A DNA stretch of 64,000 bases from Thainema sp. (GTDB lineage: Bacteria > Cyanobacteriota > Cyanobacteriia > Phormidesmidales > Phormidesmidaceae). The stretch covers positions 1 through 64,000 of the forward strand of contig JBQLZK010000006.1 of the NCBI GenBank assembly GCA_052168235.1, read 5' to 3'. The notes beneath the pieces were generated by a model that was not told the origin of the DNA, made no database searches, and saw only the letters and a program-made list of their open reading frames with translations. Positions 83 through 8,457 of this stretch are shown here, one piece after another (within the stretch, counting starts at the first letter, position 1; each line of letters starts with the position of its first letter). The position numbers and the translations under genes are program-made.

Positions 83-373
83 CTAATGAAATGTAGAGTT
101 TATTGGTAGAAAGATCAGCAAACGGGTGCGAGAAATAATCCACGGATGCCCTTTGCGATCGCACTCAATATTGAGCTGACTAGCAACCTTGCCAGCCACC
201 GTTTCATGGGTGCCAGTGAGTGACCTATCAACTAACTCCCCATCGGCCAGTTCATAGCGAGGATTATCGGCATAGCGAGCAAGAAATTCTTCAAAACTGA
301 GAACGAGGGATGATGACGTTTGGGTTATGGTCAAAAAACCGTCTGAAACAAAGCAAGATTGATTACCATCCAA
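83..373 (-). pseudogene. Uma2/DUF820 family endonuclease, N-terminal remnant (frameshifted and truncated)
   Basis: LSFEEFLARYADNPRYELADGELV...HETVAGK is a typical Uma2 N-terminus. Similarity stops at WIISRT, continues briefly in another frame (PFADLST), and the PD-(D/E)xK core is missing. Confidence 0.7.
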
Positions 374-520: not shown

Positions 521-811
521 GTGAACTGTCAGGAAGTTGTTGCCCTTACCCAAACTCATCGTGCTGATTTAGAAGCACTCGGCGTTAAATCCTTGGAGCT
601 GTTCGGTTCCGTTGCTCGTGACGAAGCAACGCCCGAAAGCGACGTTGATTTCTTGGTCGAGTTTGCAATTGAGGCGACCTTATTTGATATGTTTCGGGTA
701 CGTCATTATCTTGAAGACCTGTTAGGACACAAAGTTGATTTAGGAACCCGCACAGCTCTCAAAGAGCATCTACGGGAATCTGTTACGAAGGATGTGGTGC
801 GTGTCTTCTAG
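521..811 (+). CDS. Minimal nucleotidyltransferase (MNT) antitoxin of the MNT-HEPN type
   Basis: 96 aa with LFGSVARDEA..SDVDFLVEF and VDLGT motifs. Confidence 0.9.
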   Translation: MNCQEVVALTQTHRADLEALGVKSLELFGSVARDEATPESDVDFLVEFAIEATLFDMFRVRHYLEDLLGHKVDLGTRTALKEHLRESVTKDVVRVF

Positions 812-869
812 AGATCGCACTTTTCCACATCACCCATCCCAAGCATTAGCTAGATTGAGCTGCGATCGC
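811..869. repeat. HIP1-bounded 59-bp repeat, copy 1
   Basis: GAGATCGC-ACTTTTCCACATCACCCATCCCAAGCATTAGCTAGATTGAGCT-GCGATCGC; 53/59 identical to 1107-1165. Confidence 0.9.
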
Positions 870-871
870 AC

Positions 872-1078
872 TTAAGCTGCTAAAACAGGTACACCCAGGG
901 CGTGAAGATCGATAGTTTCTACGTTTTTTGAGTAATTGTCTAAGGTAAGCGCAACGATTTTGCCGCTGCTGTCATAGTCCACAATCAAGTCGTCGGTGAT
1001 GGTGTCTGTTACGGCGACTGTTTGGGTGGTCAACTCAATGGCTAGAGTGTCTGTTTCAGAGAAATACTGGATTTTCAT
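872..1078 (-). CDS. DUF2283 family small protein (antitoxin-like), orphan
   Basis: MKIQYFSETDTLAIEL...DLIVDYDSSGKIVALTL pattern; ATG at 1078 preferred over the longer ORF that runs into the repeat. Confidence 0.8.
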   Translation of the reverse strand: MKIQYFSETDTLAIELTTQTVAVTDTITDDLIVDYDSSGKIVALTLDNYSKNVETIDLHALGVPVLAA

Positions 1079-1106
1079 TTTTATTACAGTTCTTTCCTTC
1101 TGTAAT

Positions 1107-1165
1107 GCGATCGCACTTCTCCACATCACCCATCCCAAACATCAGCGAGATTGAGCTGCGATCTC
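1107..1165. repeat. HIP1-bounded 59-bp repeat, copy 2
   Basis: GCGATCGC-ACTTCTCCACATCACCCATCCCAAACATCAGCGAGATTGAGCT-GCGATCTC. Confidence 0.9.
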
Positions 1166-1227
1166 AGTTCCATAATGTGTTTAAGCGGTGATAATGGAGC
1201 AAGAGGAGCTATTGGTGAGGATTCATC

Positions 1228-1467
1228 ATGCTGGGTTTTGACCGAATTACATTTGACCCTAATATCATGGCGGGACAGGCTTGCATTCGCGGAATGCGCG
1301 TTCCGGTTTCTCTTGTACTGAACCTTATTGCCAACGGACAGTCTACTGAGGACATCATTGCGGACTATCCTTATTTAGAGCCGGAAGATATTCAGCAATC
1401 TTTGAAATATGCTGCTTGGTTAGCAACTGAGCGAGTTTATCCCAGCGTTACTCCAAAAGCAGGATGA
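1228..1467 (+). CDS. DUF433 family antitoxin
   Basis: RITFDPNIMAGQACIRGMRVPV...DYPYLEPEDI signature; overlaps the next gene by ATGA. Confidence 0.92.
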   Translation: MLGFDRITFDPNIMAGQACIRGMRVPVSLVLNLIANGQSTEDIIADYPYLEPEDIQQSLKYAAWLATERVYPSVTPKAG

Positions 1468-1829
1468 AATTTCTTGCAGATATGGGAATCTCACCGCAAA
1501 CGGTCAATCTGTTGCGCCAACAAGGCCATGATGCTATTCATTTGCTGGAAGAAGGCTTGGAGCGGCTATCTGATGGAGACATTCTGATCAAGGCGCGAAA
1601 TGAGAATCGTATCTTACTGACGGTTGATTTAGATTTTGGGTATTTGTTGGCAGTAAGTAGGGCAAATCTACCAAGTGTCATTCTTTTTCGGTTAGACAAT
1701 GCTACTCGTGCAGCACTTGAAGAGAGGCTATCCGATGTCCTAAATCAATGCGAAGAAGTATTGATGAAGGGGGCTATGATTTCGGTCAGTAGCGAGGCAT
1801 TCCGAGTTAGACCACTGCCACTAATTTAA
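1464..1829 (+). CDS. DUF5615 family PIN-like toxin
   Basis: MKFLADMGIS...GHDAIHL..LSDGDIL..RILLTVDLDFG; coupled to DUF433. Confidence 0.9.
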   Translation: MKFLADMGISPQTVNLLRQQGHDAIHLLEEGLERLSDGDILIKARNENRILLTVDLDFGYLLAVSRANLPSVILFRLDNATRAALEERLSDVLNQCEEVLMKGAMISVSSEAFRVRPLPLI

Positions 1830-1834
1830 GCAGT

Positions 1835-1888
1835 GCGATCGCACTTCTCCACATCTCACATCTCAACCATGATCTCAATTGAGATCGC
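1835..1888. repeat. HIP1-bounded repeat, copy 3 (diverged, 54 bp)
   Basis: GCGATCGC-ACTTCTCCACATC..CATC.CAA.CAT...ATT-GAGATCGC; first 21 bp identical to copy 2. Confidence 0.75.
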
Positions 1889-2230
1889 AACTCCAATCTT
1901 CAATCAGGAATCAGGTGCCGTAAGTACGATGGTGCTTTTTACGGCGCGTATTACCTCATATGCTACTTGTTTGTCACATCAAAATGCGATAAATAAAAAG
2001 TTAGTTAATATACCAAGAAATAACATACTACAAACTCATTAATACTTCTTACGAATGATCAAACTCAACAAGGGCAAAAAAATCAAGGCTGATCAACAAC
2101 TTTAAAGCATGGAGCTTTATTCAAAAAGCATGATTTCTTTAATTATTCTTTCTCGTGGTGTAGAAAAGATATACTATTTGACTGAGGTGAATGTATCTGG
2201 CCTCAGGTGCGCATAATACGTAATACGAGT

Positions 2231-3586
2231 ATGAGTCAAAGTACAATGGCAGGTTTGAGAGTTGCATCTTTCTTTGCTGGAATTGGAGGATTTGACATTG
2301 GGTTCGAACAAGCAGGATTTAGCATAAGCTATCAATGCGAAATTCATGACTTTTGTAACTCAGTCCTAAAGTACCATTGGCCGAAAACTTTACGTGCCAA
2401 CGATATTTTGACAATTCATTCTAATGACATACCAAAATCTGAAATTTGGTGTGGGGGATTTCCTTGTCAAGATTTATCAGTAGCTAGAGGTTCAAGTGGT
2501 CGTCATGGTTTGAAGGGCGATAGATCGAAGTTATTTTTCAGATTGTCAGAACTAGCCAAAATCAAGAAGCCGCATGTGATTTTACTAGAAAATGTTTGTG
2601 GTCTGTTAAGTTCAAATAATGGAAAAGACTTTGCAGAACTTCTCTATACACTCAACGAGCTTAATTATGCCGTTTCATGGAGACTACTGAACAGTCGCTA
2701 CTTCGGAATACCTCAATCTCGTCCACGCATTTACATTTGTGCTTGGAGAAATAATCCTATCGCAGCAGGAAATGTTTTATTTGAAAGTTTCCTGCCAGCA
2801 CCAACAAATCATGAGCGTTCAGCATTCCTAAGTACTTCTTGGAAAGAAGGCTCATTAGGCCCGATTCCGCCAAAACTAGCCTTTTGTCTAGCAGCAACCT
2901 CAGGACGCCATACAGGTACTGATTGGAGCCGAACATATATCCCTTATGAAAAAGAAGTACGTAGGCTTACTCCGTTAGAATGTGAGCGTCTTCAAGGTTT
3001 TCCAGATCATTGGACTAAGTTGCATTTAGAGGGTATTGATGTGGAAAAATCAGATAGTCTCAGATACCATGCTCTAGGAAATGCGGTTTCAGTACCCGTC
3101 ATAAAATGGATTGCCGAGAGAATTCATCAACAGTTCGATGTCAATGGGGTAGTACCTAAGAAAAACAAGAAATTTGAGTTATCAGTAAACCATCTAAAAA
3201 AATGGCCTGCCTTATATAACTCTAAAGCAATTATAGGCAACCTTTCTAAGGTACGTGAAGAGAAAACAAAAAGCAAGTGGGCAAAAGCAGGTATTTCATG
3301 GAAAAATAGATTCATTGCAAATAATATTTCTCCTTCACCATGTAATCCTATTTACGCCGATTTAATAGATATTGTCGAGTATGATAGGCCGGATTCACGC
3401 TACTTCTTAAGTCCAAATGCAGCAGAGGGAATCTTGAGGAGAGTAGATTCTCAAAATAGGCGCTTATTTCCTCATCTTCGACGCGCCTTAGAAGAATTGA
3501 GCGGACGATCATCACATAGAAGAGAAAACTTAGATATTTTTCTGCAAATTGAACTACCTCTATTGGAGGAGATGGAATGCGTATAG
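2231..3586 (+). CDS. DNA (cytosine-5)-methyltransferase
   Basis: Motifs FFAGIGG, GFPCQDLS, ENV, QSRPR, RRLTPLECERLQGFP, LGNAV; C-terminal extension YFLSPNAAEGILRR. AT-rich, no HIP1 seen. Confidence 0.93.
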   Translation: MSQSTMAGLRVASFFAGIGGFDIGFEQAGFSISYQCEIHDFCNSVLKYHWPKTLRANDILTIHSNDIPKSEIWCGGFPCQDLSVARGSSGRHGLKGDRSKLFFRLSELAKIKKPHVILLENVCGLLSSNNGKDFAELLYTLNELNYAVSWRLLNSRYFGIPQSRPRIYICAWRNNPIAAGNVLFESFLPAPTNHERSAFLSTSWKEGSLGPIPPKLAFCLAATSGRHTGTDWSRTYIPYEKEVRRLTPLECERLQGFPDHWTKLHLEGIDVEKSDSLRYHALGNAVSVPVIKWIAERIHQQFDVNGVVPKKNKKFELSVNHLKKWPALYNSKAIIGNLSKVREEKTKSKWAKAGISWKNRFIANNISPSPCNPIYADLIDIVEYDRPDSRYFLSPNAAEGILRRVDSQNRRLFPHLRRALEELSGRSSHRRENLDIFLQIELPLLEEMECV

Positions 3587-4752
3587 CTTTAAGACCTAGT
3601 GGTGGTCGAGGAGATTATGAACTTACTGGTTCTGATAACGGAGTATATGCTTCTGAGCTGCTTGAAAAACAGTTTTACTATCAATTAACTCCAAACCTAG
3701 AAATTAATGGCAAGGCTAGGGCTTCGAGGCTTTCAGGAAAACCTCGAATTCGTCCACAAGAGGATGGCAAACATCCATATACAGTTATGTACTCAATTCT
3801 TCTTCTACCATCACCAAGAAGAGAGTTTGTTAAGACAGCCACGTCAGCTTTAACAAAGTTGATATGCAAGGACTATGTTATTTACGGAATTGATGTTGAT
3901 TTAGTAGACAATAAACCAACTAGAGTTGTGTTTGCACCAAGCAATATTTGGGCAAGGAGCCAAGGAGGAACGTTAAGAGTCAATTTTATAGAACGTATGG
4001 CAATTATCTCAATGTTATGGGCTGTAGCGAAAGGTGAGAAATCCGAATTGGCCCAATTAATTAGACAACATCAAGCCGCAGTAGCGTCTTCTAATCACCC
4101 AAATATTCAGAATACTGCGACCCAAATTCAGAAAAGATTTGAAGTAAATACCGATGTCTTGCCATTGCTGTTAAATCAATTTGATTTACCTAGTGATCTC
4201 AGCTCTAGTTCTATCGATCCTGGCATAACAAATGACACAACAGGTTTTGAATCTGAAGATAGTGATGTTTCTCCTCAAGTTGCTTTTCGAGAGCGTGTAA
4301 AAAAGTGGCGTAAGCAAGCTGAAAGGGGCTCGGATGCGCGGAAGTTCAGCATTACTGTTCGTGAAGCTTATGATTACCGTTGCTTTTTTTCAGGAGAACG
4401 CTTTCCAAGATTGTCAATTTTTGACTCTTCCGGTGTTGATAGTGCCCACATACTGCCTTGGTCTACTTATGGATTGAACTCTGTATCAAATGGGATATGT
4501 CTATGTAAACAATGTCATTGGGGATTTGACAATGGTTTATTGCGGTTAGATTTCAATGAACAATCAAGTAGTTATGTCTTGTCAATTCCTAAAAATATTG
4601 AAGATATAGCCGTCAAAGAGAAGTTCGATCTGGCACCCTTCCAAAAGTGTACTGGAGTTATAGATCGCTCTAGGCTACCTAAAAATCCTGGACTATGGCC
4701 AGATCCTAAATACATCCAAGAGTTGAACTCTAAGTTTTTTAACTTTAATTGA
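3577..4752 (+). CDS. HNH endonuclease, probable cognate restriction enzyme
   Basis: C-terminal AYDYRCFFSG..DSAHILPW..NGICLCKQCHWGFDNG; start overlaps the MTase stop. Confidence 0.8.
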   Translation: MRIALRPSGGRGDYELTGSDNGVYASELLEKQFYYQLTPNLEINGKARASRLSGKPRIRPQEDGKHPYTVMYSILLLPSPRREFVKTATSALTKLICKDYVIYGIDVDLVDNKPTRVVFAPSNIWARSQGGTLRVNFIERMAIISMLWAVAKGEKSELAQLIRQHQAAVASSNHPNIQNTATQIQKRFEVNTDVLPLLLNQFDLPSDLSSSSIDPGITNDTTGFESEDSDVSPQVAFRERVKKWRKQAERGSDARKFSITVREAYDYRCFFSGERFPRLSIFDSSGVDSAHILPWSTYGLNSVSNGICLCKQCHWGFDNGLLRLDFNEQSSSYVLSIPKNIEDIAVKEKFDLAPFQKCTGVIDRSRLPKNPGLWPDPKYIQELNSKFFNFN

Positions 4753-4935
4753 TAACAGCTTAATTATCATTTTCCTGACACGGTATAGTACGCTAGTATT
4801 ATATTGCTCAAGGATTCTTCATTATATTAGCGATTCCATATATGGCGTGCTCCTGGATTAAATCCCATAAACATCCCTAGATATAGGGCGAAGAATCCGC
4901 TACGCTGGAGTCAACTTTTGCCTGGGTAAAACGCG

Positions 4936-7900
4936 ATGTCCTTCGTTGGTCTACATATTCATACCGATTACAGCCTGCTCGACGGGGCGAGTCAGTTGCC
5001 GAACTTGGTTGATCGCGCGATTGAGTTGGGTATGCCTGCGATCGCACTCACCGATCACGGAGTGATGTATGGTGCGCTGCAACTGCTGAAGATGTGCAAG
5101 GCCAAGGGCATCAAGCCGATTATCGGCAACGAGATGTACATCATCAACGGCGACATCAGCAAGCAGGAGAAACGACCTCGCTATCACCAGATTGTGCTAG
5201 CCAAGAATACCCAGGGCTACAAGAATCTGGTCAAGCTGACTACGATTTCGCACCTGAAGGGCGTGCAGGGCAAAGGCATCTTCTCGCGACCCTGTATTAA
5301 TAAAGAGCTGCTGGAGCAGTATCACGAAGGGCTGATTGTCACCAGTGCTTGTCTGGGCGGCGAGATTCCCCAGGCGATTTTGCAGAACCGACCGGACGTG
5401 GCGCGGCGGGTAGCGCAGTGGTACAAGGATCTGCTGGGTGATGATTATTATTTGGAAATTCAGGATCACGGTCTGCAAGAGGAGCGGATTGTCAATCCAG
5501 AGATCGTCCGGATCGCCCAAGAACTGGACATCAAGATTGTCGTCACCAACGATTCCCACTTTATTTCCTGTAACGACGTAGAAGCTCACGATGCGCTGCT
5601 CTGTATCCAGACGGGCAAGCTGCTGTCGGAGGAGAAGCGCCTGCGCTACACGGGCACCGAGTACATCAAGTCCGCTGATGAGATGCGGCTGCTGTTCCGC
5701 GATCACCTGCCTGCTGAGATTGTCGAAACTGCGATCGCAACCACGGTAGAAGTGGCCGATAAGGTCGAAGAGTACACTGGCCTGCTGGGTGAGCCGCGCA
5801 TTCCCGACTATCCGATTCCAGAGGGCTTCACGGCAGATACCTATCTGGTGCATGTGGCCTGGGAGGGACTGCTGGATCGGCTGGGGGTGCAGAGTCGTGA
5901 TCAGGTAAAGCAGGAATACTGCGATCGCATCGAATACGAGCTGGACATGATGCAGCAGATGGGGTTCTCCACCTACTTTTTGGTGGTGTGGGACTACATC
6001 AAGTTTGCTCGCGACCATAAGATTCCGGTGGGACCGGGACGGGGTTCGGCGGCGGGGTCGCTGGTGGCCTACGCAATGGGAATTACCAATATTGACCCGG
6101 TGCATCATGGTTTGCTGTTTGAGCGGTTTCTTAACCCCGAACGGAAGTCGATGCCGGATATTGATACCGACTTCTGCATTGAGCGGCGGGAGGAGGTGAT
6201 CCAGTACGTCACCGAGAAGTACGGCGAGGAGCGGGTTGCCCAGATTATCACCTACAACCGCATGACCTCGAAGGCGGTGCTGAAGGATACGGCGCGGGTG
6301 TTGGATATTCCCTACGGCGAAGCCGACAAGATGGCGAAGATGATTCCGGTCGTGCGCGGCAAGCCTGCCAAGCTGAAGGTGATGATTTCCGACGACACGC
6401 CCTCGAAGGAATTCAAGGAAAAGTATGACAGCGACGCCACCGTCCGCCGCTGGCTCGATATGGCGATGCGGATTGAGGGCATGAACAAGAGCGTCGGCAT
6501 TCACGCGGCGGGCGTGGTGATTTCTGCCGAACCGCTGGATGAGGTGGTGCCCTTGCAGTTAAACAAAGAGGGCAACGGCGCAGTCACGCAGTACTCGATG
6601 GAAGATATCGAGTCGATGGGTCTGCTGAAGATGGACTTCCTGGGCCTGAAAAACCTAACGATGATCCAGAAGACTATTGACCTAATCGAGCAAACGCGGC
6701 AGGTGACGATTGATCCGGATGGGATTCCCTTAGACGATCAAGCTGCGATCGCACTTCTGTCTCGTGGTGAACTGGGCGGCATCTTTCAGTTGGAATCGTC
6801 GGGGATGCGCCAGATTGTGCGGGACTTGAAGCCGTCGGGTCTGGAAGATATTTCGTCGGTCTTGGCGCTCTATCGACCGGGGCCACTGGACGCGGGCCTA
6901 ATTCCCAAGTTCATCAACCGCAAGCACGGTCGCGAAAAGATTGACTACGAGCACAAAATCCTAGAGCCGATTCTGGAAGAAACCTACGGCATCATGGTCT
7001 ACCAGGAGCAGATCATGAAAATTGCCCAGGACATGGGCGGTTACTCTCTCGGACAGGCCGACCTGCTGCGGCGGGCGATGGGTAAGAAGAAAATGTCCGA
7101 GATGCTGAAGCACAAGGACAATTTTCTAGAAGGCTCGCAGAAAAACGGCGTCGATAAGAAAATTGCCGAGGGACTGTGGGAAAAAATGGTGCAGTTCGCA
7201 GAGTACTGCTTCAACAAGTCCCACTCCACTGCGTATGGGTACGTTACCTACCAGACGGCGTTTCTGAAGGCGAACTATCCGGTCGAGTACATGGCCGCGC
7301 TGCTGAGCGCCAACAGCGGCGACCAAGAGAAAGCGCAGCAGTACATCGCCGCCTGCATCTCAATGGGCATTGAAGTGCTGCCGCCGGATATCAACCGCTC
7401 CGGCGTGGACTTTACGCCCCAGGTGACGGACACCCAGAAGAGCATCCTGTTCGGCATGGGCGCGGTGCGGAACGTGGGCACCGGAGCCGTCGAGCATATC
7501 CTGGAAGTGCGGGCCGAGAAACCGTTTGAGTCTCTGGCCGACTTGTGCGATCGCGTTGACACCCGTACCGTCAACCGCCGCGCATTGGAAGCGCTCATCC
7601 AGTCCGGCGCAATGGATGCCTTCGACACCAACCGCAATCAGCTGATGCACGATCTGGAGCTGGTGCTGGAATGGGCACAGTCCCGTGCCAAAGATCGCGA
7701 AGTCGGTCAGGGCAACCTGTTCGATATGATGCTAGGCGGTGGCGATACAACTACATCGGACAGCAACGGCTTCGAGGCGGTGCCGAAAGCACCCCCTATG
7801 GCAGACTACCCCAAGCAGGAAAAGCTGAAGCTAGAGAAAGACCTCCTCGGTTTCTACATTTCCGACCATCCGCTCAAGCCCATCCAACGCCCGTCCCGCA

Positions 7901-8457
7901 TTCTGGCTCCAGTCAGCGTCAGCGAGTTTGCCGATCAGCCAGACAATATAACGATCAGCGCCATCGTCATGCTCAGCGTCGTTCTGCCCAAGGTGACGAA
8001 GAAGGGCGACAGCATGGCCATTCTACAGGTGGAAGATCTGACCGGGCGATCCGATGCCATTGTCTTTCCCAAATCCTATGCCCGCATCCGTGAGGTAATT
8101 CAGCCCGATGCCCGTCTGATGGTTTGGGGGAAAGTCGATCGGCGCGACGACCAAATTCAGCTGATCATCGACGATGCCGAACCGATTGAAGCGGTACGGA
8201 TGGTGATGGTGGAATTGTCCACGCAGCAAGCTGGTAATATCCAGTTTCAACATCAGCTACGCACCGTTCTGGTGAATCAGCGCGGTCAGGATGACTATGC
8301 CGCAAAAACCCCGGTGGTGGCAATTGTCGGCGATGGCGCAAACCGCCAGTTTGTCCGCCTCGGTTCCCAGTTCCGCGTCTTGGATCATCAGGCGGCAGTC
8401 AATGCACTAGTGAAAGCTGGCTTTACGGCTCGTGCGGAGGCGCTACCCGTTTCGTAG
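4936..8457 (+). CDS. dnaE: DNA polymerase III alpha subunit, contiguous and intein-free
   Basis: PHP domain ([12 protein letters not shown]), [33 protein letters not shown]-terminal OB fold; 1173 aa. Confidence 0.98.

Follow-up and report, generated by a model that had tools for sequence, protein, structure and literature searches.

The first kilobases of the window, a 64,000-nucleotide stretch of Thainema sp. DNA, raise the question of why a repeat capped with HIP1 octamers should recur at the joints of small toxin-antitoxin and defence modules upstream of dnaE. In most cyanobacterial genomes no octamer is more abundant than HIP1, and what HIP1 does is still an open question, according to excerpts of PMC13756078 and PMC5861425. 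The first-pass annotation of this DNA described three co-oriented copies of the repeat and suggested that they capture or shuffle genes in an integron-like manner. Re-measurement returned the same three copies, in the same orientation and at the same coordinates (Table 1), with 53/59 identical positions between copies 1 and 2, and each of the three again proved to be capped by an exact HIP1 on one side and a single-mismatch HIP1 on the other. Copy 1 shares one base with the stop codon of the MNT gene (809-811) and ends 2 bp from that of the DUF2283 gene (872-874), the DUF5615 stop is followed after 5 bp by copy 3, as first described, and the module labels (MNT, DUF2283, DUF433, DUF5615, MTase, HNH) are backed by Pfam. 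That the repeats lie at module boundaries holds for the joints originally listed; it does not extend to the right side of the MTase-HNH pair, which has neither a repeat nor a HIP1.

Table 1. Positions of the repeat units and genes in the variable region and in the adjoining dnaE gene (window coordinates).
Feature	Position	Strand	Description
Truncated Uma2 endonuclease gene	83..373	-	PF05685 positions 1-61 of 172 only; outside the repeat-bounded part
MNT nucleotidyltransferase antitoxin gene without HepT toxin	521..811	+	PF01909
Remnant of lost HepT gene	801..815	+	First five codons (VSSRD); frame then runs into copy 1
Repeat copy 1	811..869	+	Mismatch HIP1, 43-bp C-rich spacer (type A), exact HIP1
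DUF2283 gene without upstream partner gene	872..1078	-	PF10049
Repeat copy 2	1107..1165	+	Exact HIP1, 43-bp type-A spacer, mismatch HIP1
DUF433-DUF5615 (PIN-like) toxin-antitoxin pair, intact	1228..1829	+	PF04255, PF18480; between copies 2 and 3
Repeat copy 3	1835..1888	+	Exact HIP1, 38-bp type-A spacer, mismatch HIP1
Type-B spacer unit	1889-1925	+	Directly after copy 3; followed by a decayed octamer (3 mismatches) to 1933
C5 methyltransferase and HNH nuclease pair	2207..4752	+	Pfam; PADLOC MTase_II 1.8e-76, HNH 4.1e-6; repeat on left only
dnaE	4936..8457	+	Pfam; fixed core gene right of the variable region

The similarity of the repeats is not due to chance: the core of copy 2 matches that of copy 1 with E = 1.2e-8 in a genome-wide BLAST search, and the best pair of 43-mers within positions 1-2500 agrees at 40/43 sites, against at most 27/43 in 20/20 shuffles. 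With 8979 sites (1.19 per kb), HIP1 is so abundant in this genome (G000) that the octamers alone mean little, and the non-random part of the repeats is their spacers. The flanks of HIP1 are mostly T and A (CGATCGCA occurs 6587 times, compared with 8979 HIP1 sites in G000), and the mismatch form found in the window repeats, GAGATCGC, is the most frequent one-mismatch variant of HIP1 in this genome. A type-A unit followed by a type-B unit is seen in the window and likewise in the sister species (G001), and, copy 3 being followed by a type-B unit, the whole element is a tandem of two HIP1-delimited units, A and then B. When folded as DNA, the copies reach -3.7 to -8.3 kcal/mol, within about 1 SD of spacer-shuffled controls for 8/8 strands, and an Rfam search of the repeats returned no match.

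As it stands, the window array looks partly decayed. Judging from their homologues, two of the three toxin-antitoxin modules, MNT and DUF2283, appear to have been deprived of their toxins. In 26/29 MNT homologues the MNT stop is overlapped by a HepT-type start, 17 of these having an ORF of at least 100 aa, and the single downstream ORF that was scanned by Pfam is HepT-like (E = 1.5e-23). In the window, the junction of the HepT remnant sits on the GAT of the left octamer of copy 1, so that this mismatch octamer is a hybrid with the GAT common to both sides, and a full HIP1 is present at HepT codons 6-8 in four MNT homologues. Similarly, the 3' tail of a partner gene, which we take to be a toxin, lies directly upstream of DUF2283 in 23/27 homologues, in the place that copy 2 occupies in the window; a 60-aa piece of this partner had no match in Pfam. 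The DUF433-DUF5615 pair is the sole module of the window that is both intact and bracketed on two sides. Further left, positions 116-337 are 93% identical to a full-length Uma2 gene at the same locus in G001, and positions 1-55, identical to at least 18 other contig ends, probably correspond to the end of an insertion sequence that truncated Uma2 and broke the assembly; the contig ends where the window begins, and what flanks the region on the left lies beyond this contig. To the right, the GC content is 38.6% over 1934-4752 against 56.1% in dnaE, and exact HIP1 is absent between the site at 1835 and 5038. The AT-rich, exact-HIP1-free MTase-HNH pair, with an HNH protein of 391 aa, is probably an imported restriction-modification pair. 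Similarity to G001 picks up again at 4787, with 90.7% identity, two metagenome runs break at 4807, and neither position is at a HIP1; no HIP1 was found at the Uma2/MNT joint or at the HNH/dnaE joint (4787-4807).

The first-pass annotation treated the 43-bp core as a site that might recur genome-wide. A BLASTn search with this core returned no more copies in the genome at E < 0.01, and one further copy, on contig C48, came later from the alignment of HIP1 doublets, as the one extra type-A member among all 962 of them in G000. It lies 2 nt past the stop codon of a 90%-identical DUF2283 paralogue, in the same gene-relative orientation as in the window, and the orthologous stretch of G001 has no type-A repeat. 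The core is therefore not placed at random with respect to toxin-antitoxin genes, and the position of this copy beside the paralogue indicates that the repeat has travelled with the 3' end of that gene. The notion of one core serving the whole genome had to be abandoned: the repeats are particular to their loci, and only the HIP1-spacer-HIP1 architecture is common to them. Nor is the array identical in diverged strains. G001, which alone represents the genus beside G000 in the genome set and is 84-86% identical in aligned DNA, has the same repeat family with other cargo upstream of dnaE: six type-A copies, five of them clear and one decayed, and three type-B units accompany a DUF5673-like membrane protein, a 278-aa protein, an intact Uma2 and three further ORFs. 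The core gene beyond the variable region, on the side opposite dnaE, also differs between the two genomes. In a family-wide DNA search 40/173 genomes matched, most of the repeat being covered in G001 only, and among the matches listed 18 weak ones are HIP1-anchored partial matches; upstream of dnaE, nine other genomes had no such repeats. Metagenomic candidates were set aside. The 3 matches of a pattern scan all lay in HIP1-free DNA and were judged to be due to chance, a contig of run X2, at first sight an allele flanked by another sequence on the left, was rejected because its loose end matches the C48 paralogue, and a contig of run X3, in which an MNT-like end is joined to copy 2 without DUF2283, was not counted, its short side having 19 letters and a collapsed repeat being possible.

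The window locus is one case of a genome-wide class of loci with HIP1-anchored direct repeats. In the flanks of 17 DUF433 genes of G000, other modules are bracketed by HIP1-spacer-HIP1 repeats of their own. When 1777 non-coding HIP1 pairs with a spacing of 150-2500 bp were scanned blind, 58 direct and 0 inverted similarities emerged, at 18 loci (the gene calls being crude, the coding/non-coding split is approximate here, as it is in the control-pair, masked and doublet-near-gene counts below). Toxin-antitoxin or defence-type genes are enclosed at 13/17 of the loci other than the window, and four enclose none; the families, labelled by a domain scan of 48 of 78 reading frames, are ParE, BrnT, YefM/YoeB, Phd, DUF433/DUF5615, UPF0175/DUF3368, Uma2, XisH/XisI and a Shedu domain. 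One of the four mapped families is enclosed at 7/17 loci, against 14/620 approximately defined control pairs (p = 2e-7). Two of the arrays have peculiarities of their own: around XisH-XisI (G000:C15:22969-24650, L270) there is a run of at least 12 HIP1 sites, with short spacer units recurring in varied orders, and a HIP1-bracketed array (G000:C124:6929-7618, L265) holds a gene with a Shedu SduA C-terminal domain, the place of which is taken in G001 by another gene, of 325 aa.

The modules between co-oriented sites vary, in content at the window locus and in order on contig C127 and in Pseudanabaena. The regions of G001 that were compared had been picked by toxin-antitoxin and pattern matches, and provide substantial orthologous sequence for about six other arrays; all this rests on draft genomes, and pairs of genomes are not independent of one another. 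On C127 the order is A-B-E-C-D, against C-B-A-D in G001 (L314), with all modules co-oriented; the shared modules A-C are 91-94% and D is 88% identical, and module-specific sequence reaches HIP1 on each side. C46 has one BrnT module where the counterpart in G001 has three modules, C28 has, around ParDE, a duplicated DUF433-DUF5615 pair that G001 has in a single copy, behind PIN and Fic modules, and the arrays of C125 and C124 likewise differ from G001 by whole modules. HIP1 is missing from one right-hand joint, that of an insertion confined to G001 (L329, near 6725). The identity of shared toxin-antitoxin modules (91-94%, compared with an aligned average of 84-86%) hints at recent exchange between the species, a weak hint as dnaE itself reaches 91%. 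The shuffling at repeats that had first been proposed is thus seen at other loci; it is not seen at the window locus, which shares no repeat-bounded module with G001.

In other genera, HIP1-anchored repeats were found at 21/80 DUF433 loci (the best 80 of 314 relatives) in direct and at 0 in inverted orientation, and direct ones at 0/28 dnaE control loci, 0/29 MNT loci and 3/29 DUF2283 loci. An alignment independent of HIP1 detected direct repeats flanking DUF433 in 14/58 cyanobacteria, 10 of them with HIP1 in both copies, and in 1/10 non-cyanobacteria, a difference which, with few of the latter, is not significant (p = 0.44); 0/7 further records had such repeats and cross-pair controls gave 0.17%. 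When doublet loci of other genera were picked by pattern, a bracket was present in just 2/30. The Pseudanabaena arrays comprise up to eight repeats, and their shared modules are ordered D-G-H-B-A-E-C, F-E-C-A-B and B-A-F. Each repeat is there a copy of the 3' end of an upstream gene from HIP1 onwards, with a second HIP1-like octamer usually 27 nt on. In the arrays L341 (G444:C17), L342, L343, L344 and L203 such a copy starts each module, which recalls a target-restoring integration. The 30 bases to the left of HIP1 go with the module upstream (0.81 over 13 pairs, against 0.46) and those from +38 onwards with the module downstream (0.73-0.77 over 20 pairs, against 0.52-0.63), the pairs not being independent; this change of allegiance places the exchange in Pseudanabaena within the HIP1 doublet, between HIP1 and about +38 bp.

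Several scenarios may explain these arrays. The one that we favor, with a probability of roughly 0.6, is that the general recombination of the host crosses over in the HIP1-spacer-HIP1 joints, and thereby builds and erodes integron-like arrays without a dedicated integrase. In that case, the three window repeats would be the locus-specific joints of an array of small toxin-antitoxin and defence modules, and crossover inside such joints would add, delete, duplicate and reorder modules. Since HIP1 is palindromic, a crossover that relied on the octamer alone would permit either orientation and any locus, so that the direct-only, locus-specific repeats rather suggest that crossover needs 30-60 bp of spacer homology for its polarity. 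HIP1, probably methylated, would stimulate the crossover; according to an excerpt of 10.1101/2024.09.10.611283, integration in PCC 7002 increases up to 7-fold with a homologous HIP1, and more than 100-fold if the HIP1 is methylated. Circles or transforming DNA could carry the modules from one chromosome copy or strain to another, and new joints may arise by microhomology joining at GAT(C)/HIP1, sometimes cutting genes as seems to have happened to HepT. As for the integron-like capture and shuffling that were originally suggested, gain, loss and reordering are observed at other loci; the role as a recombination site and the capture of new genes are inferred. A more far-reaching version would grant many cyanobacteria an integrase-free cassette system: a host pathway that depends on HIP1 and its methylation would excise modules for defence or of the toxin-antitoxin type as circles, capture them and put them into new orders, the spacer providing locus address and direction; we regard this version as tentative and somewhat doubtful. 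No excised circle or joint was found among the low-depth contigs of seven sequencing runs. It also counts against the favored scenario that the window locus shows no reordering and that HIP1 is missing from its Uma2/MNT and HNH/dnaE joints and from the joint at L329.

Alternatively, HIP1 could be incidental: local duplications would make the direct repeats, RecA exchange or slippage together with gene flow would reorder the modules, and the repeats would be scars and passive substrates. This seems unlikely to us, even if the commonness of HIP1 (1.19 per kb), the loss of toxins at the window locus and the lack of a genome-wide excess of close HIP1 pairs all fit it. With HIP1 masked and the approximate coding split, 12/59 close direct repeats touched HIP1 in both copies against 0/48 inverted ones, in a set that includes CRISPR-looking repeats (at least one of the 12) and dispersed repeats; 8% of random non-coding 50-mers touch HIP1. 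The asymmetry speaks against incidental HIP1, and the 47/59 direct repeats in which HIP1 is absent speak for it, as do HIP1-free repeats that flank toxin-antitoxin genes (L145, L181 and L194 among them). Against the favored scenario, most toxin-antitoxin genes are without a close doublet: by the approximate gene calls, one lies within 500 bp of 14/70 toxin-antitoxin-type genes, against 171/2513 small genes and 69/580 AT-rich small genes; by family, the counts are 7/16 for DUF433, 5/40 for Uma2, 2/11 for PIN and 0/3 for MNT. HIP1 is found at DNA joints in the HepT cut, in C127-type arrays and in Pseudanabaena, and the enrichment for duplications in general is modest, only 20/232 ends of low-copy duplications falling at HIP1 (8.6%, one pair being counted twice) against 2.8% in the interior and 5.8% in the exterior. 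Most variable junctions between G000 and G001 likewise have no doublet, which was present in 11/87 of them against 3/161 simple gaps, counts that are not length-corrected, and the density of HIP1 is equal in all classes; this blind comparison covered 415 kb of 6.6 Mb, with breakpoints blurred by the 84-86% identity. Against a purely incidental HIP1 stands one doublet form to which this genus has 38 and 46 matches, whereas 299 other genomes have 0-4, the pattern having been derived from G000. Moreover, the repeats begin and end at HIP1, often 5-32 bp past a stop codon, in unrelated sequence families and in several genera, which suggests that HIP1 is more than a bystander.

Another possibility is that a site-specific recombinase encoded in trans, whether dedicated or of the host, acts on the HIP1 doublet and moves the modules as circles, like XerCD on pdif or IntI on attC. 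The exchange in Pseudanabaena, limited to some 40 bp which themselves form a HIP1 doublet, is in favor of this, as is the reordering with orientation kept, which fits circular intermediates, and an excerpt of PMC4390886 cites site-specific recombination at HIP1 in PCC 7002. The enzyme could be sought among the five tyrosine-recombinase matches and the one serine-recombinase match that G000 has away from the arrays. Yet the first-pass statement that no integrase is adjacent was upheld, as recombinase searches of the arrays gave none: tyrosine, serine or Y1 recombinase matches are missing from the window's contig, 16 of the 17 array-bearing contigs are recombinase-free by these searches, and the nearest match is broken and 19 kb away. 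Spacer sequence and length vary among loci, yet each locus holds to a single family, a sign that homology is needed, the joints can cut genes, and in an excerpt of PMC13756078 EMSA gave no HIP1-binding complex. Such a recombinase therefore appears quite improbable. That the doublets are REP- or terminator-like elements acting at the RNA level after stop codons, or tiny SDR5-like units inserting into HIP1, their link with module joints being secondary, is very improbable indeed: the copies do lie close behind stop codons, the two octamers are able to pair as a hairpin and tandem runs of such units occur, but folding is no better than in spacer-shuffled controls, Rfam gives no match, the repeat family is not dispersed through the genome, genes are found in both orientations relative to the repeat, and neither of the two Y1 transposase matches of G000 is at an array.

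Full-text literature searches, with most subscription journals outside their scope, found no paper on HIP1-jointed module arrays. These arrays are natural substrates with defined joints, by which the hypothesis of recombination at HIP1 becomes directly testable. If crossover by host recombination in the joints is true, HIP1, a long-unexplained palindrome, would gain a testable job, cyanobacteria would stock and rearrange toxin-antitoxin and defence genes in an integron-like way that attC-based tools have overlooked, and HIP1 doublets could be used as landing sites for engineering.

The window array resembles an integron array but is not one. The attC sites carry the core motifs RYYYAAC and GTTRRRY at their ends, and neither motif was found, on either strand, within 25 bp of any window copy; folding of the copies, no better than that of spacer-shuffled controls, revealed no special bottom-strand hairpin of the attC type. 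TIGR02249 scored above its cut-off in 0/2 draft genomes for an intact IntI, an N-terminal remnant on other contigs being all that was detected. This integron-integrase remnant comprises the first ~70 codons, with a HIP1 doublet within about 40 bp after it (G000:C41:1960-2280, L337; G001:C87:22043-22231, L338). Five attC-like sites are present in G000 (C58:4590-4684 and 5920-6011, C43:20355-20449, C36:53987-54085 and C1:8871-8965); two of them follow DUF433 modules, so that the same toxin-antitoxin families occur in this genome as attC cassettes and as HIP1-bracketed modules. Unlike those of integrons, HIP1-doublet joints are not gene-clean and can truncate genes. The pdif modules of Acinetobacter plasmids are small and often of the toxin-antitoxin type, and the host's machinery moves them at a site of host origin; pdif sites are of the fixed XerC/XerD kind, with XerC and XerD arms around a 6-bp core, and usually alternate in orientation. 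The HIP1-bracketed modules are likewise small and rich in toxin-antitoxin genes, but their sites are direct only and variable in sequence, and XerC/XerD arms around a 6-bp core are unlikely given variable spacers of 38-43 bp. Neither the dispersed palindromic copies nor the flanked Y1 transposase of REP/BIME elements with RAYT were found and, contrary to CRISPR, the repeated part is the spacer itself and gene-sized modules lie between the copies. SDR5 (Elhai 2008, cited in excerpts of PMC5861425, PMC4390886 and PMC13756078) is a 21-nt dispersed unit inside HIP1 in Nostocaceae, and is also short and tied to HIP1; it sits between HIP1 bases 3 and 4, whereas here locus-specific spacers of 20-60 bp lie between two whole octamers and bracket genes, and the window family consists of the locus and one more copy. 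DNA joints on HIP1 are shared with the excision of 352 bp in smtB, flanked by HIP1, in Synechococcus PCC 6301 (Gupta 1993, cited in an excerpt of PMC13756078) and with plasmid recombination at HIP1 in PCC 7002 (Akiyama 1998, cited in an excerpt of PMC4390886); as described there, these were single events at lone octamers, whereas the doublets reported here have homologous spacers and punctuate multi-module arrays. The arrays share several features with integrons and CALIN attC clusters, which, according to excerpts of PMC4889954 (Cury et al. 2016), also have co-oriented, locus-similar sites between gene modules, a toxin-antitoxin cargo and an integrase that may be absent nearby, and whose modules are also gained, lost and reordered.
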